A DNA stretch of 57,838 bases from a virus (taxonomy: Duplodnaviria > Caudoviricetes). Each line of letters opens with the position of its first letter. Within the stretch, counting starts at the first letter, position 1. The notes beneath the pieces were generated by a model. That model ran no database searches, was not told the origin of the DNA, and saw only the letters and a list, made by a program, of their open reading frames with translations. The DNA is taken from IMG/VR virus record IMGVR_UViG_3300047181_000043, positions 1-57,838 of that record; one strand, written 5' to 3'. The position numbers were made by a program, and so were the translations under genes. Below are positions 1,875 through 57,562 of this stretch, piece after piece.

Positions 1875-2046
1875 GCCTAACATCCAAGTTACCCCCGGAT
1901 TTCACATCCGTGTATCCAGAAGAAACTCGCGTTTTATACGGATAATATAATAAAAATTCAGGATAAAACGTAAATATTTTCCGGATAAGACTAAAGATTC
2001 CCGCTTTATCCAGATCCGGATAATGCGAAAATTGCATGATAAACTA
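1875..2046 (-). repeat. ~172-bp promoter/leader/attI-like module, left copy (inverted repeat of 57390-57562)
   Basis: Reverse complement aligns to 57390-57562 with about 20 differences by manual alignment; TTATCC repeats, AT-rich promoter-like tract, leader hairpin, ends GGGTAAC-TTGGAT-GTTAGGC. Confidence 0.95.
2039..2045 (+). promoter_or_regulatory. Putative late promoter ATAAACT (other copies: 7928, 21999, 23404, 26776-, 26791, 30797-, 33431, 35425, 44836, 57391-)
   Basis: Recurs just upstream of virion genes; analogous to the T4 late promoter TATAAATA. Confidence 0.75.
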
Positions 2047-2051
2047 CCAAT

Positions 2052-2768
2052 ATGTCAGCTTCCATTACATTTACTCCTCAGAAGATTAGGATAGGCAATT
2101 ACCTAAATATTTCGGTTTCAGGAACCACATTAGACACGTCAAATCCGGGAAAGGTGGTTGTATTGGTTAATGGGTTGTACGCCAGGATAGTATCGATTGA
2201 TACAAATAAGTTAATCGTAGTGGTGCCTAAAAAGTCTAGTAATGGAACGGTAAAGGTAATTCTCAAGAATATAACCTATTCAGGGGTTACTTATACAACT
2301 ATAGAATCGACTGATATACTAACCATTGCATATGATGATGTTCAATTTGACAGAACGGCTGTCGCCTCTGGGTTATTCAATCGAGGGCCTAGTAAGGATC
2401 CTATATATAATAAAGATATTACCATTGAAAATTTTTCAATGGTAACTGATGCAAGTTCTCTTATACAGAATGTATATAACATTCTATTAACCGCTCCGAG
2501 TGAACGGTTATTTAACGCGGAATTTGGAAATCCGTTACTTAATGATGTTTTTGCGCTTAACAATCTACCTGGTGAAAATGACACGGTAACATTAAACAAA
2601 CTAAAGAAACTAATAGAGATTCAAGAACCGAGGGTTATTGTGGATGCATCAAAATCTTATGCGTTCTACGATCCAAATTCAAATTCAATGAAGGTTCTTT
2701 TGATTATATTGTTACCAGCGGGAAAAAGTGAGCAGGTGGCTGTTTCACTCAAGGCGCTCGGAAATTAA
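2052..2768 (+). CDS. gp25: Baseplate wedge subunit, gp25-like, with N-terminal IPT/TIG Ig-like domain
   Basis: NILLTAPSERLFNAEFG...IEIQEPRV gp25 signature; beta-rich N-terminus. Confidence 0.8.
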   Translation: MSASITFTPQKIRIGNYLNISVSGTTLDTSNPGKVVVLVNGLYARIVSIDTNKLIVVVPKKSSNGTVKVILKNITYSGVTYTTIESTDILTIAYDDVQFDRTAVASGLFNRGPSKDPIYNKDITIENFSMVTDASSLIQNVYNILLTAPSERLFNAEFGNPLLNDVFALNNLPGENDTVTLNKLKKLIEIQEPRVIVDASKSYAFYDPNSNSMKVLLIILLPAGKSEQVAVSLKALGN

Positions 2769-3700
2769 TGCTTAAACGAAATACTACAGATGGTGAAATC
2801 CGATATTATCAGGATAGTTTGGATAATATTGATGAAATACTACGTGACTTAGGTTGTGTAACTAAGGATGGTAATATTACCAAGTCTTTAAAGTTGCGGA
2901 AGGTTGTGGGTAAATATCAAATCCCAAATTCTAGTTATTATAGTCCGTGTATAGACGTTACATATGAAAATAAGACTGCTAAGATTATTCGGGGTAGTTC
3001 TGATGTATTTCAGTTTACCGGGAATCTTTATGATTTAATTCCACCGATGAAGTGGTTTGGTCGCCTGGTAGATAGTGTAACGATAGATGGACATGAATTT
3101 AGTCCGGATTTTGTAGTTGATGGTGATGTAATAAGAAATGGTCAGGGAATACGAATTGCTGCGGGTACATTTAGAGAATCGGCTGAAACCTCGTCTATGG
3201 CTGCTAATTTTTATATGGGGTGTAATGATTCCCGAGGTGGTGCTGCTCTGCCGCTGTTAAGGGGATATCGGGATTTTATATATAGATTAGGATTTGGTAC
3301 AGAACCTATAGTTGGATTTGCCGATCTTAATGAATATGTATCGAGAATGTCATTGGATAAGGCGTTTAAAGTATCTGGAGCATTGCCTACATGTGATTAT
3401 TTATTGAACTTCTCGGAGATGGGAAGTAAGATGTATTCGAGATTAACTGAGGTGAAATCGAATAAGCAATTCAAATCAGAATTTATTTTTTCAGGAAAAT
3501 GCACCCCATCTGGTTCAAGTGGAATGAACGTTCCATATGTGATTTTTTATCCAGGCCCGATTCAGATTGCTGGCACAAAATTGTTGCAACGGGCATATCA
3601 GATTCAGGAATATAATATAAATATGGCTATCGGATTGTTCAGTACTACTCCACCATTTGTTAAGAATGGGTTAAATTTGTTAGGTAACAAAAAAAGTTAA
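2768..3700 (+). CDS. Hypothetical protein, coupled to gp25
   Basis: 310-aa ORF, TAATG overlap; no motif recognised. Confidence 0.7.
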   Translation: MLKRNTTDGEIRYYQDSLDNIDEILRDLGCVTKDGNITKSLKLRKVVGKYQIPNSSYYSPCIDVTYENKTAKIIRGSSDVFQFTGNLYDLIPPMKWFGRLVDSVTIDGHEFSPDFVVDGDVIRNGQGIRIAAGTFRESAETSSMAANFYMGCNDSRGGAALPLLRGYRDFIYRLGFGTEPIVGFADLNEYVSRMSLDKAFKVSGALPTCDYLLNFSEMGSKMYSRLTEVKSNKQFKSEFIFSGKCTPSGSSGMNVPYVIFYPGPIQIAGTKLLQRAYQIQEYNINMAIGLFSTTPPFVKNGLNLLGNKKS

Positions 3701-3780
3701 TAAATTGCTGTTTTCGGATCAACAAAAACCAATATTGTTAATAGTTAACAATATTGCGCCCAGTGGGCGAAGGATCAGAT

Positions 3781-5043
3781 ATGGCAAAGAAAAACCAATC
3801 CGCGGAAAGTTCCGCACCATCATATTTTTCATCCCTCAAGAAGATCAAGACCGGAAACGAGCTTGCTGATTCCGGTAAGAAGTTAGTCATCGCCGACTAC
3901 ACTGATACTGGATCTCTTATTCTGAACGTAGGCCTTACGGGAGATCTGACGAAGGGAATTCCTTCCGGAAAGGTTATCATGCTTGCCGGTGAAAAGCAGA
4001 CCGGTAAAACCTTTATTGCCGCTTACTGCTACTGCAGACCGCTACAAAATAAGGGTTACTTTATTTTCTGGATCGATACCGAAAATGCGATGGATGACGA
4101 TCGCTTGGCCGGTTATGGTTTGAATCCTGATGGATTTAGAATTATCAAGGAAAACATCGCCGAACAAGTTCGCTTCCAGGTAAATACAATTCTCGATGAA
4201 ATTGAAGAATTGAAGAAGAAGGATCCAAATCTTAAGGCAGCGATTGTGCTTGATTCCCAGGGACAGATGTCTACCATGAAGGCCGTTTCCGATACTGAAA
4301 AGGGTGAGAAGAAGCAAGATTATACCAAGCAGAAGGAACTCAAGACGTTTTATAATCTGACTACCCATCGCCTGGGTGTATTGGATGTTCCTATGTTGGT
4401 GACTAACCACGTTTATGCAGATGTGAATAATCCATTTGCTGGTAATACTAAGGTTATCAGTGGCGGTGAAGGTGGAATGTTTTCCGCTGAAATTATTTTC
4501 TACTGTCGTAAATTTGCACATAAGGATGGAAAATCTGGTCCGAAGACAGGCATCATTTTTGAAATGACTCTTTTCAAGAATCGTTTCTGTGAAGAAGGCA
4601 AGAAGATCCGTATGTACCTGGATAGAAATACTGGCCCAAATCGTTATTACGGAATTCATCTACTCGCCGAAGAAGCCGGCATTATCGAAGAATGGGATGA
4701 AAAGAAGCATGAAAAGAAGGGACTGAAACTTCCTGAAAAGATTGATAAGAAAGACCGCAAGGCATATGTTATCAAGATCGGAACTGAAGTTGTTAATTGG
4801 AAGGTGGTCTGGGATAAATTTGTATATACTCCAGAAATTACCGATGCTATATCTGAAGATTTACAGCGCTGGTTGGATAAGGCGTTCAAATTGATCAATC
4901 CAATCAACTTTCTCAAGGAAAATCCTGATTATGTTGACGGAATCGATCTTTCCGAAAAGGAAGTTGAGGATGCTGCAGCATATACAGACGAGCTCGAGGT
5001 TGAAGCGGGAAAGAAAGTGGATTCTAAGAAATCTAAGCGATAA
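3781..5043 (+). CDS. uvsX: RecA-like recombinase UvsX
   Basis: TDTGSLILN, Walker A GEKQTGKT, IDTENA, IVLDS, TNHVY, SGG; ATG at 3781. Confidence 0.92.
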   Translation: MAKKNQSAESSAPSYFSSLKKIKTGNELADSGKKLVIADYTDTGSLILNVGLTGDLTKGIPSGKVIMLAGEKQTGKTFIAAYCYCRPLQNKGYFIFWIDTENAMDDDRLAGYGLNPDGFRIIKENIAEQVRFQVNTILDEIEELKKKDPNLKAAIVLDSQGQMSTMKAVSDTEKGEKKQDYTKQKELKTFYNLTTHRLGVLDVPMLVTNHVYADVNNPFAGNTKVISGGEGGMFSAEIIFYCRKFAHKDGKSGPKTGIIFEMTLFKNRFCEEGKKIRMYLDRNTGPNRYYGIHLLAEEAGIIEEWDEKKHEKKGLKLPEKIDKKDRKAYVIKIGTEVVNWKVVWDKFVYTPEITDAISEDLQRWLDKAFKLINPINFLKENPDYVDGIDLSEKEVEDAAAYTDELEVEAGKKVDSKKSKR

Positions 5044-5047
5044 CTAT

Positions 5048-5071
5048 AAGGGGGCCTAACGGCCCCTTTTT
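5048..5071 (+). terminator. Intrinsic terminator
   Basis: GGGGCC-TAAC-GGCCCC-TTTTT. Confidence 0.85.
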
Positions 5072-5104
5072 ATTTGTTATCTTTGTTATTCATAACATTT
5101 TTAA

Positions 5105-5113
5105 TTATCTTTG
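5105..5113 (+). promoter_or_regulatory. Putative early/middle promoter element TTATCTTTG (other copies: 5077, 17150, 22480, 27392, 30772, 35390-, 39618-, 40441; variant 12764)
   Basis: Exact 9-mer upstream of replication/recombination genes on both strands; fits TAnnTTTG. Confidence 0.8.
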
Positions 5114-5119
5114 TTTTAG

Positions 5120-6871
5120 ATGAACCAAACTGTCCCAAATCCTTTAGCATATCGACCACTGGCCCCGCCTGTCGGCAACTTGCCAATGCAAGTGGGGGTT
5201 CCTGGAATCTCAAGTAATGATATTGCTATGTCATCGTTCATGACTCAGGAAGACATTGTTCTTCGTCATATAATGGCAGATTTTTCGCTACAAAATCGCA
5301 TCGTAGCACATTTGGACCAAGAATTATTTGAATTGGATGATAATAAGCACATATGCTATGCGATTCGAGAATATAATAAAAAGTTCTCTAGGTTTCCGAC
5401 ATATCAGGAAATAAAGCTTACTCTACCCCAGGGATCCGTAGCTTCTTATCATCTTGACCAGGTAATGGCATATCCGATGACAAGCGTGGGGCCGGAATTT
5501 ATTCATCATACCGTGATGAAGTTCTTCAAAACTCGAAGAACCAAACAAATTCTAATCAAAGCCGCCGAAAAGATTCATTCGGATCGTATTGATGATATTG
5601 ATTCCATTGTTCCTGAGCTAGAGAAGGCCCTAGGATTCAATCTTGTCAGTGGGGTAGGCTTCGACCTTATCGATGACTTAAGGACCCTCCTGCTCAAGAT
5701 GAAGGCCATTGCCAATGCCATTCCTTCCGCAATATCGGAACTTAACGCCGCCACCAAGAAGAAAGGCACTCACGGCGGATACTATAAGAAAGCGGTTTCC
5801 CTTTATATGGGTCAACCGAATGTAGGAAAAACTCTATTTCTATGTAATGATGCCGCCCACGCCTTCCGGCTAGGTTATAATGTTCTTTATATTTCACTTG
5901 AAATGGCAGAAGAACTACTTGCCGAACGCGTTATAGCCAATCTATGTAATGTTCCAATCTTTGATGTTGTCGATTATGATGCAGATGATCTTACTGATCG
6001 ATTGAATAAGAACTTTACTGAAGAAAACACTCCAGGTAAGTTCTTTTTTCGTAGGCTTCCTACTACCACAAATCCAGCCGATATCGAACGCTGTATAAAT
6101 GAAATTCTTTTGACCAAGGCCGTCGCCATTGACCTGGTTGTTGTTGATTATCTAGGCATCATGAAGCCACAGAAACGCGCTGGAGTCGATACCAATTCCC
6201 TATATTCTATCGGTAAGGATGTTATTGAACAACTCCGCGATATGGCGGATAGAACAAACACTGCAGTTCTCACCGCATCTCAGATGAATAGAGATGGATA
6301 TGACGAATTGATGGCATCCCTTAAAAACACTGCAGGTTCCGCTGGAATCAACGAGACAGCTGACCTGATTGTAACCATTGCCCGGGATGCTGCGCTTAGA
6401 GAACGTAACATGTTCTTCCATATGATTCTAAAAAATCGATTTGGTGAAAACTGCCAGGTATTCCATTCAGAATTTGAACGAAAATATATGCGAGTCACTG
6501 ACGCAACCCAATCTAGCGTTGATGGATATCATCAAACTCTCGGTGCTAAACAGGTCGATATTAAGAACTTTACCCGAGTGGCTAGTTCTATTCCTGATAT
6601 AAGTGGAAAATCAAAGGAAGAGAAAAAAGAACAGGAACAAAAATATATCGAGAAATTTGGCGGTGCCACTAATCCAGTATATGCTCCCGAACAACACTAT
6701 CCACTAAATCCGGAAATAATCCCAGAGGCCACCAATGCATTTACAGGATTGGTTGCACTTGATATTGACCCGACCCATTCCAACGGACCTATGACTATGG
6801 CTGAAGTTTCCAATATGCCAAATAGATCCCTAGCCGAAGCCGCTGCTAATTTTGGAAGAAATTTCAGATGA
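5120..6871 (+). CDS. gp41: Replicative DnaB-family helicase, gp41-like
   Basis: GQPNVGKT, VLYISLEMAEE, VVVDYL, TASQMNRDG, LKNRFG. Confidence 0.92.
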   Translation: MNQTVPNPLAYRPLAPPVGNLPMQVGVPGISSNDIAMSSFMTQEDIVLRHIMADFSLQNRIVAHLDQELFELDDNKHICYAIREYNKKFSRFPTYQEIKLTLPQGSVASYHLDQVMAYPMTSVGPEFIHHTVMKFFKTRRTKQILIKAAEKIHSDRIDDIDSIVPELEKALGFNLVSGVGFDLIDDLRTLLLKMKAIANAIPSAISELNAATKKKGTHGGYYKKAVSLYMGQPNVGKTLFLCNDAAHAFRLGYNVLYISLEMAEELLAERVIANLCNVPIFDVVDYDADDLTDRLNKNFTEENTPGKFFFRRLPTTTNPADIERCINEILLTKAVAIDLVVVDYLGIMKPQKRAGVDTNSLYSIGKDVIEQLRDMADRTNTAVLTASQMNRDGYDELMASLKNTAGSAGINETADLIVTIARDAALRERNMFFHMILKNRFGENCQVFHSEFERKYMRVTDATQSSVDGYHQTLGAKQVDIKNFTRVASSIPDISGKSKEEKKEQEQKYIEKFGGATNPVYAPEQHYPLNPEIIPEATNAFTGLVALDIDPTHSNGPMTMAEVSNMPNRSLAEAAANFGRNFR

Positions 6872-6882
6872 AATATTGAAAT

Positions 6883-7862: not shown

Positions 7863-7891
7863 TTGACAGTTGAGAAAATAATTACTACTTT
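7863..7891 (+). promoter_or_regulatory. Sigma70-type promoter in the IS607 left end
   Basis: TTGACA-17 nt-TACTTT. Confidence 0.6.
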
Positions 7892-7948
7892 CTACTTCAA
7901 ATTAACTGAATCTAATAACCTGTTTGTATAAACTAAAAGGAGAAGAGG

Positions 7949-8131
7949 ATGAAACGCATGAAAGTAGTACGAGTGACAAAGGAAGAGTTCGAGCTTGAGG
8001 ATGGCACCGTCCAGCCCATGATCGTGGATCTGGGCTATGTCCCAACCGTTGAAGAGTTCCAGCAGATGCTGGATGAGTCCTGCAAATTCGCAGGTATCGA
8101 GGTTGAGGAAGACAAAGATGCCAGTAAATGA
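7949..8131 (+). CDS. 60-aa acidic accessory protein of the IS607 element
   Basis: AGGAG/GAGG SD; overlaps the tnpA start. Confidence 0.7.
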   Translation: MKRMKVVRVTKEEFELEDGTVQPMIVDLGYVPTVEEFQQMLDESCKFAGIEVEEDKDASK

Positions 8132-8777
8132 AAATGACAGGATGATACGCATTCGAGAAGCATGCGAGATGCTTGGTGTTCACCAGAACACGTTGCGTAT
8201 GTGGACGGAACAGGGGAAGATCCAAGCATACCGTGGTGAGAACTCTGATCGTGGTCAGAGACGTTACCGTATTGGTGACATCAAAGCACTGCTTGGTATG
8301 AAGCAGTTGGATGCACCAGTTGAAGCACTTCCTGTAGCCATCTACTGTCGTGTGAGTTCACATGACCAGAAAAAACATGGTGACTTAGAGCGACAGAAAG
8401 GAAGGATGCTGGAATTCGCAGTACATAAGAAGTACCACGTCGAGTACATACTGGATGAAGTTGGTTCTGGACTTAATGATAAGCGAAAGAAGCTACATAA
8501 GTTGATGGAACTGGCAGAACAACATAAGATATCCAAAATCATAGTGGAACATAAGGATCGGCTGACTCGTTTCAACTACGAGATCCTTGTCCGTTTCTTC
8601 AACAGCCACGGAGTTTCCGTTGAATATGTGGAAGAAACGCTTGGTGGTACGTTTGAAGCGGAACTGGTGAAGGATCTACTTTCCCTCATCACCGTGTTTT
8701 CAGCGAAGCTGCATGGCAAGCGGAGCAAGGAAAACCGTGAGCGCACTAAGAAGATGAAGGAAGACGGATTGCTATGA
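8118..8777 (+). CDS. tnpA: IS607 transposase TnpA (MerR-like HTH + serine recombinase)
   Basis: IREACEMLGVHQNTLRMW HTH; YCRVSS, EVGSGLN, EHKDRLTRF, ELVKDL...FSAKLHG. Confidence 0.95.
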   Translation: MPVNENDRMIRIREACEMLGVHQNTLRMWTEQGKIQAYRGENSDRGQRRYRIGDIKALLGMKQLDAPVEALPVAIYCRVSSHDQKKHGDLERQKGRMLEFAVHKKYHVEYILDEVGSGLNDKRKKLHKLMELAEQHKISKIIVEHKDRLTRFNYEILVRFFNSHGVSVEYVEETLGGTFEAELVKDLLSLITVFSAKLHGKRSKENRERTKKMKEDGLL

Positions 8778-10582
8778 AGCACTTGGACAACTACAGGGAA
8801 ATGGATTCCACCTACTCGGTGGCATTCTTTCCCCACATGTTGTCCAGAAGCAAGAAGCGTGAGATCCTTCGCATGGCGAAGAAGATCCTTGCACTCAGGA
8901 ACGAAATATCAGAAATCGTACAGGGTGACCTGTTAAAGTTCCTGAACATGAGCAAGTTCGAGTTCTTCAACTACTTCAATCCGATCCTATCAGGAAGGAT
9001 CTCCAGTCATTTCATCAAGAAGATCATGGAAGATGTACATGAAGCATACCAGAGAAGATCCGAAGCGATAGATAAGCATATCCAGTTCCAGATAGTAACC
9101 TCATTGACTCCTGTATTCTACAAGCGTAGAACCAAGGACAAACAGGTTGGTGACCTGAAATCAATCACCAGAAAAACCAAGAAGACTGACATATCGATCA
9201 CATTAACCTACCTTGCTCGTTATGGTCATACGGGAACATTGCAGTTCCTTCGTGGCGCAATAGAGAATACAGAGGTCAAGGAAGACAAGACGTGGTTTTA
9301 TCTTAAATTGTTGGACATGTGTGATCGTTATGGATTTGGTAGGTTGATGACACTCGCTATGTCAAAACGTGAGCAAGTATATTCTCGTTACGAGGATCGT
9401 GGTGCTATCTGCTTCAGTTCCCTATCGTTCAAGGGAAGATCAAGAATAACACGTCCTATCGTAGCTCGTTCCTCCAAGAAGAATTCTAGGATCAGTCACT
9501 TCGTTGAGTTGTCATGGGAGTGGTCAGAGACGAAAGGTAAACGGAAGAAATCTGACACGATGTGCATTCCTGTTAAGTATAATGCTAAGTATCACAGGAA
9601 CCTAAAAAGATACAGCAACGGAACAGATACCAGCTATACGGTAGTTGTCCGTGGTAAAGATATTCATGTTGTGCTTACCCGTGATGGTAAAAGGTATGTA
9701 CCACTAGCAGAAATAGAGCAGGAGAAAGTTGTTGGTGCTGATGTGAATCAGAAGCATAACATGCTTTCCTGTAGTGATGGATTCACTGTAGATCATAACA
9801 GAGAATTGATTGATGATCTACAGAAAGAACTACTGAAGATAGATAAGAATCGGGAAGTCCACGACAAGCATCAGAAGCTCATCATCGAAGCCAAGAAGCA
9901 GGAAGCTAGGGATTCCGGTGACAAGTATATCAAGTCCAAGAAAGTTGCATACAAACCTACTCGTAAGGAACTTCGGATAATAGATGCATTGTCACGCAAG
10001 AATACCCACTACCAAGAACAGAAGATTGCAGAAATACTGAATCATATGGTGGCTTGTGGATTCAACCACATCGTCCTTGAGGACTTGGATGGATTCATTG
10101 GTGCGAAAACATATGGTGACACCGAAGGTGGTGTGAATACAGGTCGTCTTGGTAAAGCTCTACAACTTTCATCAATCAAGGATATCATTCTCCACATGGC
10201 AACCAGATACGGTGTTTCCGTGTCTCTAGTGCATAAGGAATATTCATCGAAGCAATGTCCGTTATGTGACTGCATCGATGACCTGAACAGGACATCACAG
10301 GAGAAATTTGTTTGTGTGAGATGTGGTTACAGTGATAACGCTGACCACAACTCATCAGTTAATTTGAAAATCCGGCTTACCTCGACCGTGTTAAGAGGGA
10401 AGTTGCTCACGCAACAGACTACCGGATACAGTGCGTTCTTGCCAAAGAACCTTCCTAGATGGAAGGTGAAGGATGCTCTGGAAAAATATCGTCATGGAAT
10501 GGATCTCGATCCATTCGGAAACTTCGTGGAGCCTAAAGTGGTCAGAAATGACCACTATGAAGTTCTGTTAGGTTTGCAGTGA
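8774..10582 (+). CDS. tnpB: TnpB RNA-guided nuclease, long form (602 aa), RuvC triad intact
   Basis: VVGADVN, IVLEDL, CPLC...CVRC zinc finger, NADHNSSVNL. Confidence 0.92.
   Translation: MKHLDNYREMDSTYSVAFFPHMLSRSKKREILRMAKKILALRNEISEIVQGDLLKFLNMSKFEFFNYFNPILSGRISSHFIKKIMEDVHEAYQRRSEAIDKHIQFQIVTSLTPVFYKRRTKDKQVGDLKSITRKTKKTDISITLTYLARYGHTGTLQFLRGAIENTEVKEDKTWFYLKLLDMCDRYGFGRLMTLAMSKREQVYSRYEDRGAICFSSLSFKGRSRITRPIVARSSKKNSRISHFVELSWEWSETKGKRKKSDTMCIPVKYNAKYHRNLKRYSNGTDTSYTVVVRGKDIHVVLTRDGKRYVPLAEIEQEKVVGADVNQKHNMLSCSDGFTVDHNRELIDDLQKELLKIDKNREVHDKHQKLIIEAKKQEARDSGDKYIKSKKVAYKPTRKELRIIDALSRKNTHYQEQKIAEILNHMVACGFNHIVLEDLDGFIGAKTYGDTEGGVNTGRLGKALQLSSIKDIILHMATRYGVSVSLVHKEYSSKQCPLCDCIDDLNRTSQEKFVCVRCGYSDNADHNSSVNLKIRLTSTVLRGKLLTQQTTGYSAFLPKNLPRWKVKDALEKYRHGMDLDPFGNFVEPKVVRNDHYEVLLGLQ
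10434..10579 (+). ncRNA. TnpB omegaRNA scaffold overlapping the tnpB 3' end (5' boundary uncertain)
   Basis: Hairpins 10449-10467, 10497-10516, 10537-10556 (GAAA loop); stem 10520-27/10557-64; pseudoknot-like pairing 10531-36/10568-73. Confidence 0.8.
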
Positions 10583-11520
10583 CGGTGATAATGTGTACAT
10601 TCTGTTCAAATACTGTACCGGAGACTGCAATTGAATTACAATATTCCGAAATTCGTAATGAATTCACTTCACCTACCAATATAACGGATCTTTCTATTGT
10701 ATATAGAAAGGTGCCTAGTGGGATGTTTCCTATAGGTGAATTGGGATTTTCGCCTGACCGGTCGGGCTCATATTCCGGATGTACCGGACTTCCTTTTATG
10801 CCACTGATGATATCGAAACGACATGACTGTCCGATTTTATCGCCTGGTGGTGATGAAATAATTCTGGGAACAAACCAATGGATGTTGTTATATAACTTGA
10901 ACTCAGATGTTAATAAGTTAATTAAATCAATTCCCCATATAGAAGATTTCAAATGGCGCTATGGAGCCGATAGCACCATGGTTATATCATATTCAACCGT
11001 TCCTAAAAAATTAATGGATCACTACCCACGGTTCCCGGATAAAAAATTATTTAATATAAATGCGTTCGAAGTATTGCGTATTTGCTACGCTTCCGGTGAA
11101 GAATTGGAATCTTTGTTACATAATTTTGCGTTTAGTAAGATTGAGAGATTAGATGATGATGAACGTATAATATTATGTGACATGGTAGAAGCTAAAATTA
11201 AATTGGAAAAGGATTCAAATATGAAAGACGAAGCGCCTGTCGGCCTTATTATAGATTCATTATCATCGACTCATAAAAATAACGATGCAGAATCTCAAAA
11301 ATATTATTCACCTACGCCTATAGTAACTATTGGAAGTGGTGGGGTGGTTACTTCTTCGGGACCTATCAACAACATTTCTGAAGTGGCGACAGCCGAAACT
11401 GGGGAAGTGGCGACAGCCAGAGATAATATAATAAAAATAATCGATCGCGAGTTAGAACAACTGTCCATAATTCAGATTGTTAATGTGTTAGATAATATAA
11501 TAAAGTTGAAAATAAAATAA
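10579..11520 (+). CDS. Hypothetical protein (start GTG 10579 or ATG 10591)
   Basis: 313-aa ORF, N-terminal CxxC. Confidence 0.7.
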   Translation: MTVIMCTFCSNTVPETAIELQYSEIRNEFTSPTNITDLSIVYRKVPSGMFPIGELGFSPDRSGSYSGCTGLPFMPLMISKRHDCPILSPGGDEIILGTNQWMLLYNLNSDVNKLIKSIPHIEDFKWRYGADSTMVISYSTVPKKLMDHYPRFPDKKLFNINAFEVLRICYASGEELESLLHNFAFSKIERLDDDERIILCDMVEAKIKLEKDSNMKDEAPVGLIIDSLSSTHKNNDAESQKYYSPTPIVTIGSGGVVTSSGPINNISEVATAETGEVATARDNIIKIIDRELEQLSIIQIVNVLDNIIKLKIK

Positions 11521-11534
11521 AAAAGGAATTACAT

Positions 11535-12796: not shown

Positions 12797-15700
12797 ATGA
12801 CACAACGAAATTCAAATTACCTCCCACTGAAGCTCACCAAAAACGCTATCAAGGTACTCGAAGCGCGATACCTGAAAAAGGTCGAAGGAAAGATCGTAGA
12901 AACCCCAGAAGATTTGTTCTACCGAGTGGCTGACGCCATGGCCAACGTCGATGAAAGATATGGCGCGAGTGCCGAAGAAATCGAAGCACTTCGCGTTAAA
13001 TTCTACAATATGATGGTAGAAGGAAAGTTCATGCCAAATAGCCCCGCACTGATGAACGCGGGAAAGAACAATGGCAACAGCTTCTCTGCATGTATTCACG
13101 GAGATTCACCGGTGTTGACTAACAGTGGTTATGTGCCTATGCGAGAAATATATGACCGGGTGAATTCAGGCGAGACTGTTATTGTATCTAATGGATTTAA
13201 TGAATGGGTCCCTGTATTAGCTGCCATAAATCAAGGTATTAAACCAGTATATAGGATCAATACACGAGCAGGTCGTTATGTAGATTGTACTTTAGATCAT
13301 AAATTCTATACATTCGAGCCAGGAAATAGAGATAATGGTGCATATGAAACCGGAAGCTTTAAATGGGCTCCCATTGGAGAAATTCCTTGTGGTAGGAGGT
13401 TGGCATATGGGATGCAGTCACCAATCGTGGAAGATAATAATGAAATTGATTCGGAGATAGCGTTAGCCGCCTGGATATTAACTGATGGAGGTTGCGGATG
13501 GTACAAGCAATCTAAGGGAACTACAGGGGAGTTTTTTGTTGGTGAAATTCAAGTTATAGATGATCGATCCCTAGATAACGTTATTAATCATATTAACAAG
13601 TTGGGATTTTCATATACACAAAAAGATATTTCAGGTGTGGGTGGAGTAGAACGATTTACTAGAATCAGATCATATGATAGAAAATTAGCTAAGTTTTGTG
13701 AAAAATTTGAGTTATTTAATAGAACTAACACAAAAATAGTGTCTTCCTTAATAAGAAATTCTTCGTATTCAAATAAGAGAGAATTTTTGCGAATCGTATT
13801 TGAAGCAGATGGATGTATAACAGGAACTGGAATAGGATTTCAATCTGTTTCTCAAGTATTAGTTGAAAACATTTCTGAGATGTTAGATTTATTTGGGATT
13901 GCTCATACCATAAATTTCAAAAAAGAACGCCGGGTAGGGAGATTGGATGGTTGGTCAATCCAAATTAATCACACCCGAAGTATCTTATTGTTTAAGGAAA
14001 GAATTGGGTTTATATCTGATCGTAAGCAATTGAAATTATCACAATGGCCGGAAAAGAATCCATATCCAGAAAATATAAAATATGTAGGTAATGAATATTT
14101 AGGTGAAGATGAAGTATTTGATATTCAAACCGCTATAGATGGGAATGGGAGTTTTGTTGTTGATGGTATTATTGTACATAACTGTTTTGTCCTACCTCTC
14201 AATGATTCTATTCGTGATATATTTACAACTGCTTTGAATACCGCCCTTGTACAGAAGGCTGGAGGTGGTACGGGATTTAGCTTCGACAAGCTTCGGCCGA
14301 CAGGCGATTTTATCAATAGCTCCGGTGGAACTACATCAGGTCCTATTTCCTTTTGGAAGGTACTCGCAGAAACTACCAATTCAATTCAGCAAGGATGTTT
14401 TGTAGGATCTACCCTTATTGGAATGCCTGGTCAGAACAAGCAGATCAGAGACATTAAAAAAGGTGATGTTGTCTATTCATATGATACTAATATAGGACAT
14501 GTAGTGTATAAGAAAGCTGCGTGTGATGCGTTCAAGACTAAAGAAAACGCACCCGTTTTTAAACTCTCAACGAATCGAGGACTTGATGTTTTCGTTACAG
14601 AAAATCATCAATTCTTACTTCGTAGTAATGATTACATAGAATTAAAGGATTTAGATTCTCGTTTGCCTATAATGTCCCTACTTCGCCGATTGGACGTTTC
14701 TCAAGTCGATGCCACATACCCAGCACAAACAACTGATGGAATTGATTATTCATTTGTGTCAAATAACTATTTAGATTCTGTATATGACACCGTAGTTGCG
14801 TCAATTGAATTTTCACATCATGAAGATGTGTGGGATTTTGAAGTTGAAGACACTCATAATTTTAGCGTGGTAGGAAATGATGGTGAGGGTATATTTGTAC
14901 ATAATTCCATGCGTCGCGGTGCAAACATGGGTATGATGACCATTACCCATCCTGATATTCTCAAGTTCATCACAGCCAAGCAAGATCTAAGTAAGTTCAC
15001 TAATTACAATATTTCGATCAAGATTCCCGATGCCTGGATGGTCGAGTATAAGAAATGTCCAGATGCTCCACACGTCGCTATTAATTTCCGTACTGGAGAT
15101 CGTTATGTTATTCCAAAGACAGTTCCGATCGAAACATATGAAATCAATGAGTTGATCAGATATGAAGATTATGTAGAGGGTTCTGTTAAAATTTGGACCA
15201 TGCGCGAAATCTTTGGAATCATTATTGATTGTGCTTGGAAAACTGGCGAACCCGGTCTTTTCTTTATTGATAAAGTCAATGAAAAAAATGCAACTCCTCA
15301 CGTTGGTGAAATCGAGGCAAGTAACCCCTGCGGCGAATTACCCTTACTCCCATATGAAGCTTGCAACTTAGGATCGCTAAATATTGCTGCATTTGTTACT
15401 GAAAATGGTCTTGACTGGGAATCCCTCGGACAATATATCAGAACCGCAACATATTTCCTGGATACCGTTATTGACGCGAGTCCTTTCCCAATTCCAGAGA
15501 TCAAGAAGATGTGCGATGAGAATCGCAAGATCGGTTTGGGTTTGATGGGATTTGCTGATGCGATGTTCCTGTTAGGAATCTCCTATAATTCAGATGAAGG
15601 AATTGAGTTCGGTCGCAAATTGATGAAGTTCATTAATGATACTGCACTGGATGAATCTGAATCGATTGCCAAGAAGAAGGGAGTATTCCCTAATTATGTA

Positions 15701-17071
15701 GGATCTCGTTGGGAGACCGAATGGAACCGAACCTTACGTAATGCCGGAGTGACAACAGTTGCCCCAACAGGAACCATTTCAATTATTGCGGATTGTTCTG
15801 GTGGCATCGAGCCAATGTTCTCGCTGGCATTTGAACGTAACGTGTTAAATGGCCAGAAGTTAATCGAAGTGAATAAGATATTTGAGAAGGTTGCTAAGGA
15901 CCGAGGATTTTATTCTCCGGAACTTATGGAACGTTTGGCTAAGGAAGGAACGCTTCAACATATTGATGAAGTTCCTGATGATATCAAGAAAATCTATGTA
16001 TGTTCTCATGATATCGCTCCAGAATGGCATATCCGCATGCAGGCAGCCTTCCAGGAATCCTGTAGTTCTTCCATATCCAAAACAATCAATATGCCCCACA
16101 CGGCCTCCAGAGAGGATGTGGAACAGACTTACTTGATGGCCTGGGAGATGAATTGCAAGGGCATCACGGTATACCGTGACGGTTGTCGCGATATGCAGCC
16201 CATGTCGCTTAAGAAGGAATCTGCCAAGATGGAGATTCCCGAAGCCAAGGAAGAGGCTAAGCATATCGAGGAACAGCAGATCGAATTGCAAAATATTTTC
16301 GTAGGCGTTCCTGAAGGCCAAATCATTTCTGATGTTTCGTTCCCAGATCGTTCCCACTCGGAGACCTATGTTATCCGCGCCGGCAAGAAGGGTTCAAAGA
16401 CGCACAAGAAGATATATACAACCCTAGCATTCGCGGATAAGGATTTGACTCGTCCATTTGCGATGTTTGTTAATTCCAATTCGTTCACCTCGAATGAAGT
16501 CACTGATGAGATTGTGAAGATTCTGAAGGCGCTTGCTAAGGAAAAGCTTTCTGAGGATGCGATCCATGCTTTGCGCGAATCCATGAAGGGCCAGAGTAAG
16601 ATTTCCCAGTTGATCCACATAACATCGGCTGTCGCCACTGTGGGAGTGACTGCGCAAGATATCATAGCAGTTCTTCCACATGAGAACAAGACTGACGAGG
16701 ATCCTGTGGTGACGGCGGACATTATTTCAATTCTTACCAAGCTTGCTGCGGAAAAGGGAATTCGCAAGGAATTGGTAGAGGATCTTGAAAAGAAGTATCG
16801 CAATCAGGTTAACGTGGTCAAGATTGCTCGTTTGATAGGCATGTTGCTTCGTCATAACGTTCGAATCTCGGATGTGGTTGAATCATTCGACCAGGTGCAA
16901 TTCCCAGTTACCTCATTCGTTTTCCAGATCAAGAAGTTGTTATCCAAGTTCATTAAGGATGGCACTGAAGTGACTGGCAAAACAGGATGTCCTGAATGTG
17001 GTGGTAAGATGGTCTACCAAGAAGGGTGTTTGAAATGTGCATCCGGCTGTGGTTGGTCAAAGTGCAAATAA
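12797..17071 (+). CDS. nrdJ: Class II (adenosylcobalamin-dependent) ribonucleotide reductase with two inteins
   Basis: FMPNSPALMNAG, GGGTGFSF, RRGANMG, GEPGLFFID, SNPCGELPL, TTVAPTGTIS, KGITVYRDG, C-terminal CPECG...CLKC. Confidence 0.95.
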   Translation: MTQRNSNYLPLKLTKNAIKVLEARYLKKVEGKIVETPEDLFYRVADAMANVDERYGASAEEIEALRVKFYNMMVEGKFMPNSPALMNAGKNNGNSFSACIHGDSPVLTNSGYVPMREIYDRVNSGETVIVSNGFNEWVPVLAAINQGIKPVYRINTRAGRYVDCTLDHKFYTFEPGNRDNGAYETGSFKWAPIGEIPCGRRLAYGMQSPIVEDNNEIDSEIALAAWILTDGGCGWYKQSKGTTGEFFVGEIQVIDDRSLDNVINHINKLGFSYTQKDISGVGGVERFTRIRSYDRKLAKFCEKFELFNRTNTKIVSSLIRNSSYSNKREFLRIVFEADGCITGTGIGFQSVSQVLVENISEMLDLFGIAHTINFKKERRVGRLDGWSIQINHTRSILLFKERIGFISDRKQLKLSQWPEKNPYPENIKYVGNEYLGEDEVFDIQTAIDGNGSFVVDGIIVHNCFVLPLNDSIRDIFTTALNTALVQKAGGGTGFSFDKLRPTGDFINSSGGTTSGPISFWKVLAETTNSIQQGCFVGSTLIGMPGQNKQIRDIKKGDVVYSYDTNIGHVVYKKAACDAFKTKENAPVFKLSTNRGLDVFVTENHQFLLRSNDYIELKDLDSRLPIMSLLRRLDVSQVDATYPAQTTDGIDYSFVSNNYLDSVYDTVVASIEFSHHEDVWDFEVEDTHNFSVVGNDGEGIFVHNSMRRGANMGMMTITHPDILKFITAKQDLSKFTNYNISIKIPDAWMVEYKKCPDAPHVAINFRTGDRYVIPKTVPIETYEINELIRYEDYVEGSVKIWTMREIFGIIIDCAWKTGEPGLFFIDKVNEKNATPHVGEIEASNPCGELPLLPYEACNLGSLNIAAFVTENGLDWESLGQYIRTATYFLDTVIDASPFPIPEIKKMCDENRKIGLGLMGFADAMFLLGISYNSDEGIEFGRKLMKFINDTALDESESIAKKKGVFPNYVGSRWETEWNRTLRNAGVTTVAPTGTISIIADCSGGIEPMFSLAFERNVLNGQKLIEVNKIFEKVAKDRGFYSPELMERLAKEGTLQHIDEVPDDIKKIYVCSHDIAPEWHIRMQAAFQESCSSSISKTINMPHTASREDVEQTYLMAWEMNCKGITVYRDGCRDMQPMSLKKESAKMEIPEAKEEAKHIEEQQIELQNIFVGVPEGQIISDVSFPDRSHSETYVIRAGKKGSKTHKKIYTTLAFADKDLTRPFAMFVNSNSFTSNEVTDEIVKILKALAKEKLSEDAIHALRESMKGQSKISQLIHITSAVATVGVTAQDIIAVLPHENKTDEDPVVTADIISILTKLAAEKGIRKELVEDLEKKYRNQVNVVKIARLIGMLLRHNVRISDVVESFDQVQFPVTSFVFQIKKLLSKFIKDGTEVTGKTGCPECGGKMVYQEGCLKCASGCGWSKCK
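13091..14182 (+). mobile_element. Intein 1 in NrdJ, 364 aa, with LAGLIDADG homing endonuclease
   Basis: SA|CIHGDS...TLDHKF...IIVHN|CFV; AAWILTDGG and LRIVFEADG motifs. Confidence 0.93.
14396..14905 (+). mobile_element. Intein 2 in NrdJ, 170-aa mini-intein
   Basis: QQG|CFVGST...TENHQF...VWDFEVEDTHNF...FVHN|SMRRGA; no endonuclease motifs. Confidence 0.93.
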
Positions 17072-48198: not shown

Positions 48199-48206
48199 AG
48201 GATTAT

Positions 48207-48620: not shown

Positions 48621-48621
48621 A

Positions 48622-52999: not shown

Positions 53000-53008
53000 A
53001 CAGGTAAC

Positions 53009-53509
53009 GTGAACTACAAGCAGGACTGTCATAAGGGTGTATACCCAATAACCAATCGGGAAAAATATATAGGTGCTGCCTATCCCGAATTTAAATCTAA
53101 TTGGGAAAAGCGGATATTTTATATGTTAGACACTAACCCATTCGTATTGAAATGGGGATATGAATTTGTTCGCATCAACTATGTCCACCCAGTGACTGGC
53201 AAATTTGCAATATATCTGCCTGATATTTTCTGCCAGGCGAAAACCGAAAGTGGTCGGGTTATGAATTACTTGATCGAAATAAAACCGGCCAAAATGAAAG
53301 AAGCTCCGAAGGAACCAAAACAACCAAAAAGCTTTGAAGCTTCTAGCGGTCCTAAGTATCAAAAATCAATTGCTAGATATAATAGCGAAATGGTTGATTA
53401 TGCTATTAATCGCGCAAAATGGGATGCTGCTGAGCGCTGGTGTCTAACAAATCAAGTTACTTGGATAATACTTACCGAAAATGAAGCAAAGGCGTTATTC
53501 CGAAGTTAA
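53009..53509 (+). CDS. gp4: Head completion nuclease, gp4-like (TnsA-type PD-(D/E)xK)
   Basis: KGVYPITNREKYIG, KSNWE, KWGYE, YLPD, LIEIKP, NRAKWDAA, ILTE. Confidence 0.88.
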   Translation: MNYKQDCHKGVYPITNREKYIGAAYPEFKSNWEKRIFYMLDTNPFVLKWGYEFVRINYVHPVTGKFAIYLPDIFCQAKTESGRVMNYLIEIKPAKMKEAPKEPKQPKSFEASSGPKYQKSIARYNSEMVDYAINRAKWDAAERWCLTNQVTWIILTENEAKALFRS

Positions 53510-53529
53510 AATTCAAATATCTTATTTGA

Positions 53530-53946
53530 ATGAGTTGTTGCGGCGGAGAGCCATATACCGGTGAAATCTATATACCACTTCCACAGAGATTGGTAGAATA
53601 CGGCCAAACCACGGTCGGATTGGAAGTTATGAATAGATTTCCGAGTACCCGGCTTTGGATATTTTCTTTTATCCAGGACGTGGAAGGATGTTCGTCTTGT
53701 GTAGACGCGTTTACACAAATGATATCATGGTTTCGCAAACGTGATTTTTTGGATAATCCATCGAATAATGTGAAATTCATATATGAAGATAATATTTTAG
53801 GAAATCCTATAGCTAGAGATATAGGTATAGTAAAATCACCAACTCATATCTTTTGCGGTCCTGACGGAACTATACATGATATTGTTCTAGGTACTCCAAA
53901 TGATGAATGGTTGGATCAATATATTTTGCCAAAGTTGGTATCATGA
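53530..53946 (+). CDS. Thioredoxin-fold protein
   Basis: CSSC motif; IARDIGIVKSPTHIF..PDG. Confidence 0.7.
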   Translation: MSCCGGEPYTGEIYIPLPQRLVEYGQTTVGLEVMNRFPSTRLWIFSFIQDVEGCSSCVDAFTQMISWFRKRDFLDNPSNNVKFIYEDNILGNPIARDIGIVKSPTHIFCGPDGTIHDIVLGTPNDEWLDQYILPKLVS

Positions 53947-54998: not shown

Positions 54999-55855
54999 TC
55001 TCGGTAATTATAATATTACATAACCAATCAAAAAATTTAGATCCGATTTTATTAGGATTGTCTAGACAATCTATATCTGATTTTTCAGTAATTGTAATTG
55101 AAGACCGTCCTACCGAATCAGATCATGCTGAACATTTGTTAGCAATATCAAGTTCTAATATTTCAGACAAAATATTATTACACACATTATCCAATCATCC
55201 ATTAGTTTCTCGTAAAAATCCTGATGGGTCTACATTCCTTGCTCCATATGCTAGAGAAGTTGGGTTGGATATGGCGATTGCGTCGGGAAGCGAGTATTTT
55301 ATATTTATAGATGGTGATTGCATTCCATTGTCAGGTATGATAAGTGGTCACTTGGATTCACTTAAATATAATATTCCAGTTCTTACGTGTGGACGAAGAA
55401 GGGAAAAAAAGTATAGATGGCAGGATATGCGCGAATGCGAACCAGGAATAATGAATTATGGTATTTTTCGCGGAAAAGGAATGCTCGTAAATAATCCAGA
55501 TTTATTGATTAAATCATTATTGGTTTGGTCATGTAATATTGGATTGAATCTGGCTGCGGTGCGCCGTATCCGCGAATTAAATAGGATGTTTACCGGACAC
55601 TCGGATTTATTCTGTCGCCATTTCTGGGGAGCCTGGGGCGGCGAAGACGGCTTTCTAGGAATTCAGGCATGGACAACGCGCACGTATATTAAAATGCTGG
55701 GTGATCCGATGTCTGGAGTTGATCATATAGATCATCCGCGCCCCGCAGAAATATATAATCCAGACCACTCTAAATTTTTATCAGATATTTCTGATAAATT
55801 AAGAAAGTATTTAGTTATAAATCCATTGGATTTGGCATTCTTCACGAATTTTTAG
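54995..55855 (+). CDS. Family 2 glycosyltransferase
   Basis: ISVIIILHNQ, VIVIED, FIFIDGDCIP, SCNIG, WGGED. Confidence 0.88.
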   Translation: MISVIIILHNQSKNLDPILLGLSRQSISDFSVIVIEDRPTESDHAEHLLAISSSNISDKILLHTLSNHPLVSRKNPDGSTFLAPYAREVGLDMAIASGSEYFIFIDGDCIPLSGMISGHLDSLKYNIPVLTCGRRREKKYRWQDMRECEPGIMNYGIFRGKGMLVNNPDLLIKSLLVWSCNIGLNLAAVRRIRELNRMFTGHSDLFCRHFWGAWGGEDGFLGIQAWTTRTYIKMLGDPMSGVDHIDHPRPAEIYNPDHSKFLSDISDKLRKYLVINPLDLAFFTNF

Positions 55856-56732
55856 ATCTGGCTTTTGCCGATGCGGGACTGTCTTCAAATCGATTTATCT
55901 TCAACGCCTTTACTGATCCACTGCCTGACAACATTTCTTTATCACTCATGTTATCACTAATTCCCCGGAAAGTTCCAAATTCTTTAAATGGTTGCTGGAA
56001 TAAATCGGGGCATTCAAATGATACATTATACATCATTTTTTTGGCATCGCTAGATACGAATCTAGGAGATCCTGGATCCTTCAGTACAATAGAATTAAAT
56101 TCGAACACCTGAGTAGGTACCATATCATATGTACCTGAACCCATATTATGGCCTTGAAAGGTGGCCACATAAGCACATAACTTCTGAAATGAAGATGTTG
56201 GCTTCAGTAGCTGCGGAGAAAAGAAGCAGTTAATAAGAGCATTAAAAAATTGATACCATATAAGATCTTTATTTTCGATTACGGTCAGATTTAATAATCC
56301 TGGGCCGGCATGACTTCTAACTAATGGAAATTGTATAGACTTCTCCGTATCAACCGTGTATCCAGTTTCTGTTATAGTCTTTACCGTGGGAACGTCAACA
56401 TGATCAACTACCCATTTCATTTCTACCGAAAATCCCCTGCCTTTATTGTCTTTATTTACATGTCCCGCGATCCAACGATTTAGCATTTCCTTATATATAG
56501 GACGCCCGTTATACTCTTTTGGGATGTTAGTTACCATATCACGAGCAGCATATTTAATTAGCGAATCAACCGCTTTTTGTACATATTCACCATAAAAACC
56601 AACTAGGTATTTATTTCCTACATAGATTGAACCATTAGAATAAAATCCGGAGTTCCATTCTTCTGCAGTCTTGTCTTTTTCAATGGATTTAGTTCCACTG
56701 CTTGCAGCAATTGCTTGTGTAATTTGGCTCAT
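55842..56732 (-). CDS. Tail-tube-fold baseplate protein (gp54-like)
   Basis: VDHVDVPT, LNLTVIE, QVFEFNSI, YNVSFE; late operon with 56735-57385. Confidence 0.5.
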   Translation of the reverse strand: MSQITQAIAASSGTKSIEKDKTAEEWNSGFYSNGSIYVGNKYLVGFYGEYVQKAVDSLIKYAARDMVTNIPKEYNGRPIYKEMLNRWIAGHVNKDNKGRGFSVEMKWVVDHVDVPTVKTITETGYTVDTEKSIQFPLVRSHAGPGLLNLTVIENKDLIWYQFFNALINCFFSPQLLKPTSSFQKLCAYVATFQGHNMGSGTYDMVPTQVFEFNSIVLKDPGSPRFVSSDAKKMMYNVSFECPDLFQQPFKEFGTFRGISDNMSDKEMLSGSGSVKALKINRFEDSPASAKARSKNS

Positions 56733-56734
56733 AT

Positions 56735-57385
56735 TTACGTTTTTCCTGCAGTTGTATCAACGATGCTTGCTGGTGGTGTTGGATAATGTTGTGGTGAATC
56801 TGATCTAAATACATTGCGGAAACTAAATATACAGGACAAAGCAAATGTTTTTATAGAAGGATCTATGAAAGATTCTTCTGGTGTAGTCAGTCCCTGAGGA
56901 AAACATCTATAATATCTAGTTGTTTGATATATTTGATACGTATTGTCGCCGTCTATTATATCAATATATGGTATATACATCAGGCGATTTCTATAAAATC
57001 CATCATTTCCATAAACAAAATCTTTCTTATTTTGGATTGGATATCCATTTGTCTTTCCGCTTTGCACTGTTTGCATATATCTATATAATGCCCACCAATT
57101 TTCATTTCGCGAGTCCGCTATCATATTTATTGTGATAGTTTCGTTTAAATATTCATTATCTTCGGTGATGGGTATGTGAACCCTGGCCTTATAATGATAC
57201 TCTTTTTCATAATTCAATTGAATGTCGGGTGGTCTATACGACGTAATTAACGCGTTTATGGTTTCGCTTGGCGGCGAGTCGGACTGTGAAAATGATACTG
57301 GTAGGGGACCAATTACAATTTTTCCGGTGGCATTATGCCTACGGGTAAGTGAGTGGTCAAGTATAGGTGAAATTGTATCAATCAC
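56735..57385 (-). CDS. Tail-tube-fold protein (gp3/gp19-like tail completion)
   Basis: SYRPPDIQL, ITINMIADSRNENWWALYRYM, RYYRCFPQGLT; ATAAACT 5 nt upstream. Confidence 0.6.
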   Translation of the reverse strand: MIDTISPILDHSLTRRHNATGKIVIGPLPVSFSQSDSPPSETINALITSYRPPDIQLNYEKEYHYKARVHIPITEDNEYLNETITINMIADSRNENWWALYRYMQTVQSGKTNGYPIQNKKDFVYGNDGFYRNRLMYIPYIDIIDGDNTYQIYQTTRYYRCFPQGLTTPEESFIDPSIKTFALSCIFSFRNVFRSDSPQHYPTPPASIVDTTAGKT

Positions 57386-57389
57386 ATTC

Positions 57390-57562
57390 TAGTTTATCAA
57401 GTCAATTTCGCATTATCCGGATATGGATAAAACGGGAATCTTTAGCCTTATACGGAAAAAACTTTCGTTTTATCCGGATTTTTTATTATATTATCCGCAT
57501 AACGCGAGAGTTTTCTCCTGGATACACGGATGTGAAAACCAGGGGTAACTTGGATGTTAGGC
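57390..57562 (+). repeat. ~172-bp promoter/leader/attI-like module, right copy (inverted repeat of 1875-2046)
   Basis: Aligns to the reverse complement of 1875-2046; ends GGGTAAC-TTGGAT-GTTAGGC. Confidence 0.95.

Follow-up and report, generated by a model that had tools for sequence, protein, structure and literature searches.

Early promoter and stem-loop elements (PeSLs) were reportedly described by Arbiol et al. in 2010 as mobile regulatory cassettes of T4-type phages. Virulent phages also carry clusters of attC sites lacking integron integrases (CALINs), which Qi et al. (2023, PMC9892861) take to comprise at least two attC sites and no integrase; that work, whose 17 CALIN phages are listed in its supplementary tables, presents DNA methyltransferases as recurrent cargo, and reports that, of six phage attC sites, five were recombined with attI1 by the integrase IntI1. 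The same text gives attI1 as L and R boxes plus the direct repeats DR1 and DR2, and mentions a prophage with two attI copies. Cassettes that an integrase inserts elsewhere than at att sites, in so-called attG sites, form the subject of Loot et al. (bioRxiv 10.1101/2022.09.11.507474). Here we analyse a stretch of 57,838 nucleotides of viral DNA (Duplodnaviria; Caudoviricetes), positions 1 to 57,838 of the IMG/VR record IMGVR_UViG_3300047181_000043 and referred to in its entirety as the window. It holds two copies of a ~170-bp intergenic element, here called the platform, each standing at the head of a row of small genes. On balance, the platform is probably a docking-plus-expression head for an integrase-less, integron-type cassette array.

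The platform and its copies

A repeat search of the window returned two adjoining pairs of inverted arms, 1923-2046/57390-57513 (124 nucleotides, 86% identity) and 1875-1925/57512-57562 (51 nucleotides, 94%), the next-longest inverted pair being 31 nucleotides at 74%. Aligned with MAFFT, the two copies form one unbroken match of ~175 nucleotides with a mean column identity of 87%, in agreement with the original prediction, made from the letters alone, of inverted repeats at 1875-2046 and 57390-57562 that are 85-90% identical. The match spans from the GCCTAAC at 1875 up to ~6 nucleotides short of the flanking start codons (2052, plus strand; 57385, minus strand), and each copy thus constitutes an entire divergent intergenic region. 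Copy L (1875-2050, minus strand) fills the gap between a gp25-like baseplate gene (2052, plus) and the left cassette array on the minus strand, and copy R (57390-57562, plus strand) that between a 216-amino-acid gene (57385, minus) and the right cassette array on the plus strand. A third copy is present in a sister IMG/VR contig (G001, 34 kb) at 11260-11426, beside a RuvC-like gene and followed by four attC-type sites. The three assembled copies have ~165 nucleotides in common at 85-91% identity. Their neighbouring genes (gp25-like, the 216-amino-acid open reading frame (ORF) and RuvC-like) are mutually unrelated, and in each case the platform abuts the start codon.

On the outer side, similarity between the copies ends within the GTTAGGY core, immediately before its last base, and different genes lie beyond; the original prediction placed the break right after GTTAGGC, with different genes following. 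At this end each copy carries a simple site of the form GTAAC-N6-GTTAGGC (copy L, 1875-1892, minus strand; copy R, 57545-57562, plus strand), the homology stopping after GTTAGG. Among the metagenome contigs aligned to the window (see below), no variant occurs at 1875-1897. GTAAC-N6-GTTAGGY has the layout of an L box, a 6-nucleotide spacer and an R box, and resembles the L'-R' end of the attC sites of the window's family. At its seventh base the core reads C in copy L and T in the copy of the sister contig, and in both of these readable cases (2/2) the base matches the R'' box of the first cassette. Judged from these sequence features, the platform end may be an attI-like docking site at the head of the array. 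The word GTTAGGC itself occurs nine times in the window against 3.6 expected, with six of the nine in the two end regions; a GTTAGGC at 5054-5060 was rejected, as it belongs to an ordinary terminator hairpin and lies in its loop and stem.

The interior of the platform is likewise structured. Four direct TTATCCGNA repeats lie on the minus strand at 2015-2023, 1980-1988, 1958-1966 and 1937-1945, or -142, -107, -85 and -64 from the core, with an inverted copy at 2006-2014 (about -133). Their placement is the same in copy R (57413-57499) and the sister contig, and they are likely to be protein-binding sites. An AT-rich, -10-like box is invariant among the platform copies. RNA folds of the three copies also predict a conserved hairpin just upstream of the simple site (1893-1925, minus strand), in which the differences between copies convert G-U pairs to Watson-Crick pairs and pairing is kept. 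Separately, in contig L038 an ATCTGGA/TCCAGAT inverted repeat (~2775-2807) precedes the lone GTTAGGC half-site of the array, and recalls a palindrome of the window's platform, TTATCCGGATCTGGATAA, located at its far end.

The abundance of the platform was assessed with Logan contigs from three freshwater-sediment metagenome runs, aligned to window positions 1-6000. Summed depth over 1801-2000 was 231 in run X1, possibly the sample of origin, against 23-30 in the flanks, and 43 in run X2, against ~5-11. Position 1960 is covered by eight X1 contigs, with a total depth of 386, and by five X2 contigs. On the cassette side, loose ends at 1862, 1871, 1875 and 1876 lead into four different continuations, one of them the first cassette of the sister contig; on the gene side, loose ends at 2029 and 2046 add two more. 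X1 contains at least eight sequence variants of the platform with flanks that differ on both sides. The depth excess and the differing flanks together place the platform at ~8-17 copy-equivalents, with different neighbours on either side. Five other platform contigs have depths of 24-46 (24.4-24.8; two at 45.8), compared with 22.8-30.3 for the window's own contigs. A 10.7-kb X1 contig begins inside copy L and enters the core without differences. As a caveat, the middle of copy L (~1940-2016) is reproduced without differences by no aligned contig, and all eight X1 contigs at 1960 (8/8) read C where the window has A. Weak joints 105->1005, 105->1052 and 105->4898 (side 24-28 nucleotides, one contig each) were not used as evidence.

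Searches of viral contigs with an exact 21-mer of the platform gave no match, and with an exact 18-mer the sister contig only. The same 18-mer found six matches in metagenome contigs, all dismissed as chance since none showed any likeness upstream. A search for related loci with two platform-adjacent proteins returned no relatives.

attC-type sites and their cassettes

In the left array, palindromes of the form GCCTAAC...GTTAGGC, at 1415-1446 and 1005-1066, lie between minus-strand ORFs. When folded as single-stranded DNA, four of the six non-coding strands from the window and the sister contig reach a common shape unaided: a 7-bp R stem, an unpaired spacer of 5/4 nucleotides, an L stem of 3 + 6 + n bp bearing two single-base bulges on its 3' arm, and a loop of variable length. 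In a structure-blind MAFFT alignment of the six sites, 94.9% of cells pair, against 21-48% with slid partners, with compensatory change at 10 of the 15 L-stem pairs. The covariance model R1, derived from the same six sites, found nothing in the window beyond the two sites already known. A broader arm pattern yielded 28 further viral loci, and R1 selected 18 strong sites in seven of those contigs. Across the 24 sites, from nine viral contigs, 94.9% of cells pair against 20-45% when slid and compensatory change is seen in 13 of 15 L-stem pairs, in an alignment that was fitted to the covariance model and leans towards structure.

The definition of attC features in Nivina et al. (2016, PMC5027507) names R' and R'' boxes at the beginning and the end of the bottom strand, an unpaired spacer that has no conserved sequence and is usually of 5-6 nucleotides per arm, and two to three extrahelical bases with a 6-bp stem between first and last, of which the distal T is conserved and the proximal base is usually G; in that text, sites measure 57-141 bp and vary in length through the distal stem and terminal loop. 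The sites described here possess the R box RYYYAAC/GTTRRRY, with 94% of R-helix cells paired, the inner five pairs kept in 23-24 of the 24 sites and the CG pair adjoining the outermost kept in 21 of 24. Their spacer has 5 nucleotides on the 5' arm and 4 on the 3' arm (bottom strand), and its sequence is fairly conserved within the family. The distal bulge is T in every full site (23/23), and 6 bp separate the two bulges. Apart from a truncated site of 32 nucleotides, lengths range from 52 to 93 nucleotides, all of the variation falling in the distal stem and loop. The bottom strand has 19 G:T pairs to the top strand's 10, and the longer arm of each site adjoins the end of an ORF.

A footprint of the crossover was sought by comparing each R'' box with the surrounding half-sites: excision as circles and insertion at G/TT would predict pairing of R'' with the TTAGGY that starts its own cassette, and cassettes whose two boundaries differ are informative. 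In all 14 informative cassettes (nine internal, five first), the R'' box is complementary to the cassette's own 5' GTTAGGY and not to that of its array neighbour; nine further cassettes were uninformative and one had no upstream half-site in reach. This result gives the canonical polarity, in which each ORF is followed by its site and folding involves the non-coding strand. Neither 1005-1066 nor 1415-1446 contains a promoter-like or terminator-like match; downstream of their stems come GTTAGGC and a leader, and no T-run. Rfam reported nothing over thresholds in either array. By their anatomy, compensatory changes and footprint, then, the palindromes between the small ORFs are integron attC-type sites with a G/TT crossover footprint (the slash marking the exchange point). 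Two such sites occur in the left array of the window and four in the sister contig, with no integrase found, as in CALINs.

The first cassette beyond copy L encodes 133 amino acids (1441-1842, minus strand), an ORFan with one homologue cluster among 5.8 billion proteins. It adjoins the truncated site (1415-1446, plus strand in bottom-strand coordinates; 32 nucleotides, 41.3 bits), which retains the first 3 bp of its L stem in addition to the R stem and spacer. The second cassette ORF (1020-1412, minus strand, 130 amino acids) runs at its end into the full site (1005-1066, plus, the bottom strand as given; 62 nucleotides, 72.3 bits), and has a homologue, 43% identical over 67 amino acids, in a cassette of the unrelated viral contig L028; the other cassettes of the window are ORFans. 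The distal small ORFs at 139-984 (811-984, 515-736, 357-521 and 139-360, all minus) have no attC between them and are followed by a hairpin and T-run at ~110-135; ORF 515-736 matches phrog_3052. In the right array, the first cassette ORF (57579-57770, plus strand, 63 amino acids) stands behind a common TAATGCGAGGAA leader, and the contig ends 68 nucleotides later. Cassette ORFs are mutually unrelated within and between arrays, are tightly packed and all point away from the platform, and cassette content varies between platform copies and between samples. The sister contig shares with the window only the platform, one attC site, a 105-nucleotide element and an IS607-like recombinase gene (~70% identity).

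In three cassette ORFs of the sister contig, the TAA of the R'' box (CCTAAC) doubles as the stop codon (L002 12274-12276, 12779-12781 and 13201-13203). A distinction of cassettes from the core by Shine-Dalgarno sequence or GC content was considered and rejected, with Shine-Dalgarno-like sequences before 6 of 12 cassette ORFs and 20 of 50 core ORFs, and GC fractions of 0.39 and 0.40, respectively.

The seven further array-bearing contigs have, in the parts examined, no non-cassette gene in common with the window or with one another, and the arrays open at isolated GTTAGGY half-sites whose surroundings are unrelated. The leaders that follow the core fall into few classes across contigs, for example TAATGCGAGGAA, ATACRAAA and TGATTAAA. 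These shared classes account for the recurrence of post-core bases that had been noted originally and that we also find: ATACGAAA after 1875-1881 and 1005-1011 (both minus), and TAATG after 1415-1421 (minus) and 57556-57562 (plus). Pfam identified four N6_N4 DNA methylases, a radical-SAM protein and the Thoeris inhibitor Tad8 (E = 1.4e-18) among the cargo, besides a weak Lar-like match, DUF7446 and DUF7448. The Tad8, methylase and radical-SAM cassettes lie in unrelated viral contigs (L036 335-640; L028 1661-2410 and 2627-3481; L037 3417-4226 and 5160-5822; L031 2354-3100), and DNA methylase cassettes are common to three other contigs. Together, this points to a cassette pool shared among unrelated phages and containing counter-defence genes. 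One leader class found at four cassette starts in three contigs (L028, L037 and L033) contains a CAACC-TTCG-GGTTG hairpin placed just before the ribosome-binding site, and is a reusable module of the 5' untranslated region.

Recombinase searches and rival explanations

If the platform is a docking-plus-expression head, the following scheme would account for the repeat, its multi-copy state, the anatomy and compensatory changes of the attC-type sites, their footprint and the differing cargo, all of which are observed. The ~170-bp array head occupies the space separating an ordinary phage gene from a row of small genes that all run in one direction. The sites would be acted on by a tyrosine recombinase akin to integron integrases, coming in trans either from the host or from an unsequenced phage region. 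Cassettes would be excised as circles through attC x attC recombination, the circles would be inserted at the platform G/TT, and the cassettes would be transcribed from the platform. Many dispersed, integrase-less integron heads could in this manner make up the variable regions of the phage, probably for counter-defence genes. The scheme presupposes the recombinase, the promoter and the use of the platform, rather than of attC alone, as the docking site. A bolder version, which we advance tentatively and hold to be somewhat doubtful, is a "multi-headed integron": ~10 dispersed platforms in a giant T4-like phage, each feeding its own array from a pool on which unrelated phages also draw and in which counter-defence genes (DNA methylases, Tad8) are enriched, with the TTATCCGNA repeats binding a phage factor that would recruit or regulate the in-trans recombinase.

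Several results weigh against the docking-head reading, among them those of the searches for an enzyme. The tyrosine recombinase family PF00589 was found in none of ten viral records (the window, the sister contig, a 224-kb relative and the seven other array-bearing records), among them one 98%-complete record and one with terminal repeats. As there is no PF00589 match, the recombinase is wholly postulated and would have to act in trans. A complete integron has intI next to attI; the neighbours of the platform are gp25-like, tail-tube-like and RuvC-like genes. A pattern scan of the whole collection for a bacterial array of the same attC type gave three singleton matches at 15-17 bits; the three bacterial genomes behind these weak matches contained no match, nor did any of 151 Verrucomicrobiota genomes (0/151). 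The only sigma-70-like match in the platform scores 9/12, and such matches are no commoner than in shuffled sequence. Moreover, none of the seven other contigs with this attC family has the platform, which is, by implication, not needed for insertion. In the window itself, one of the two attC sites is truncated to 32 nucleotides and no attC accompanies the last four ORFs of the left array. At the level of anatomy, C takes the place of the usual G as the proximal bulge in 22 of 24 sites (one has A and one lacks the bulge), and one spacer arm has 4 nucleotides; the proximal C is a deviation and not an exclusion, because the source says "usually" of the G. Finally, contigs cannot tell one genome bearing all platform copies from several co-occurring relatives.

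Two further enzyme-related results concern relatives of the window. The 224-kb relative, whose polymerase is 44% identical, showed no attC array above control level and no PF00589 match. A serine recombinase was rejected as the cassette enzyme, PF00239 being present in this array-less relative and in none of the seven sister array-bearing records (0/7).

An alternative that we consider unlikely, if the most serious of those weighed here, is that the platform is only a repeated divergent promoter or regulatory region, PeSL-like, which has spread and reshuffles its flanking genes by homologous recombination through UvsX, its GTTAGG end having been left over from an attC nearby. In favour are the presence of UvsX in a T4-like phage and the reported role of PeSLs in causing indels in T4-like variable regions (PMC4122927); in addition, the positioned repeats, the AT-rich box and the reach to ~6 nucleotides from the neighbour's start codon resemble a promoter module; that other phages of the same attC family manage without the platform, and that ten viral records yielded no integrase, would also fit. 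Such a module would not be expected, however, to break off at the identical base in three assemblies and within 1862-1876 in four more contig ends, at what is the crossover point of every cassette. Its last base follows the R'' box of the first cassette, its end is arranged like a simple site (L box, 6 nucleotides, R box), and neither a promoter-like match nor a T-run occurs in the sites between cassettes. The original prediction had named, as the mark of an ordinary repeated early promoter, many copies followed by conserved genes with no attC; many copies were indeed seen, but variable cassettes follow them instead.

The multi-copy signal might instead stem from several related phages with one or two copies each, or from a mis-joined assembly path, rather than from one genome of ~10 copies. 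The data are contigs only, the middle of copy L is matched exactly by none of them, and the sister contig has little in common with the window beyond the platform, one attC, the 105-nucleotide element and the IS607-like recombinase gene. Against this stand the two copies adjoining unique genes within the window alone, the 10.7-kb X1 contig that runs from copy L into the core without differences, and the five other platform contigs at depths of 24-46 against 23-30 for the window's own; we judge this explanation improbable. Least credible of all is recombination between the two edge copies, by UvsX or IntI, flipping a ~55-kb block into inversion isomers, as originally envisaged. The copies are inverted and 87% identical, and UvsX is encoded at 3754-5043. 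The record, however, holds 14% of the genome and the platform has many copies, so these two are not special; their longest exact identity is 21 bp, the copies remain 9-15% diverged, which argues against frequent exchange, and the PF00589 search of the window detected no IntI. The aligned metagenome contigs are unitig-like and break inside the repeat, such that isomers would be invisible either way.

Returning to the docking-head reading, two capture hotspots had been proposed at the edges of a conserved core. The capture part of this proposal gains an attI-like end, integron-type cassettes with attC anatomy, compensatory change and a G/TT footprint, and cargo that varies between copies and samples. 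Bracketing of the core does not hold: the record is linear with a CheckV completeness of 14%, its left end lies in a ~5x repeat, a third copy stands by a RuvC-like gene, and the platform is multi-copy. A "55-kb core bracketed by two sites" largely reflects where a 14%-complete contig ends. IntI had also been named as an available recombinase, and the window gave no PF00589 match.

The phage and related systems

Given its 14% completeness, the "core genome" of the record is merely the part of a large phage that is present on the contig. The full genome would be on the order of about 400 kb, that of a giant T4-like phage of freshwater sediment. T4-like structural genes encode a gp25-like baseplate wedge, tail sheath and tail tube, and a 296-amino-acid gene two positions inward of copy R is similar to tail-tube proteins. 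For recombination the window encodes, besides UvsX, Mre11/Rad50-like gp47/46, and for replication a DnaB-like helicase, gp32, a primase, a family-B polymerase and a clamp loader. The best protein match of the polymerase is ~27% identical, to gp43 of a T4-like cyanophage, and 8 kb of the core had no blastn match among GenBank phages.

The left contig end is occupied by a repeated element (1-105, no strand assigned), which follows the terminator of the left array, has ~5x local depth in X1 and is 100% identical to positions 13896-13792 of the sister contig; given this depth and identity, the contig end is most likely an assembly break at a repeat. In the sister contig the element (L002 13792-13896) lies between TnpB fragments of a split IS607/TnpB element. 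An intact IS607-like pair occurs in the window within the block of replication genes (8037-10582), comprising a serine recombinase of 246 amino acids with a MerR-type helix-turn-helix and a TnpB of 602 amino acids with a Cas12f1-like TNB domain. The related IS607-like copy of the sister contig, with the split TnpB, is situated just downstream of the cassette array, and its recombinase is 53% identical.

Other features of the window were observed in passing. The large subunit of ribonucleotide reductase (12797-17071, 1424 amino acids), a gene of nucleotide metabolism, is interrupted by an intein with a LAGLIDADG homing-endonuclease domain. A stand-alone protein with a TnsA-like endonuclease N-terminal domain (53009-53509, 166 amino acids) is encoded among tail or baseplate genes. 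The sequence TTATCTTTGTTA occurs 11 times in the window at one mismatch or fewer, against 0.8 expected, with positions including 5077, 17150, 19628, 22480, 27392, 30772 and 40441 (plus) and 35387 and 39615 (minus), mostly 1-30 nucleotides upstream of start codons, in genes for replication and other functions. Within it is the word TAnnTTTG, which resembles the Bacteroidota -7 promoter element; TTATCTTTGTTA might serve as a phage promoter or hint at the host.

Phage CALINs are among the closest of the described systems. As presented in PMC9892861, they are, like the arrays of the window, integrase-less, attC-bounded cassettes in lytic phages with methyltransferase cargo, and integrase-less attC arrays in lytic phages are therefore already known. 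To these the window adds a dedicated, conserved, multi-copy head of ~170 bp with an attI-like end, in a giant T4-like phage. The main text of PMC9892861, to which this comparison extends, does not mention T4-like, jumbo or Myoviridae-type phages, and a literature search found no report of attC sites in jumbo, giant or T4-like phages.

Compared with the integron attI as portrayed in the same source, the platform likewise has a double-stranded simple site ending in G/TTRRRY and preceded by direct repeats, and more than one copy per element has a precedent. It differs in that its sequence is unlike that of the Shewanella attI, its TTATCCGNA repeats are unlike the core, no intI adjoins it, and its copies number ~10 rather than two. 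Insertion of the attG type, as outlined by Loot et al. (bioRxiv 10.1101/2022.09.11.507474), would explain the first cassettes at lone GTTAGGY half-sites in the seven sister contigs; the lineage of the window, by contrast, uses a conserved and duplicated platform and not arbitrary genomic sites.

PeSLs, in the description of Comeau et al. (2014, PMC4122927), resemble the window's sites in being short repeated motifs between small variable genes that act as exchange points in T4-like plastic regions. Whereas a PeSL combines a composite early promoter with a stem-loop terminator and serves homologous exchange, the attC-type sites of the window have integron R and L boxes, bulges and a G/TT footprint, with neither promoter nor T-run. 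For the question of how cassettes reach the arrays of lytic phages and are expressed there, a duplicated attI-like head offers a defined DNA substrate. If the copies reside in one genome, this would be the first case known to us of integron-type sites organising the variable regions of a T4-like jumbo phage; and if the multi-headed integron were true, integron-type recombination would drive T4-like variable regions, a role so far ascribed to PeSL-mediated homologous exchange. Set beside these systems, what appears to be new is the conserved many-copy platform, its giant T4-like setting, and a single attC family that extends across unrelated phages with a 14/14 footprint.

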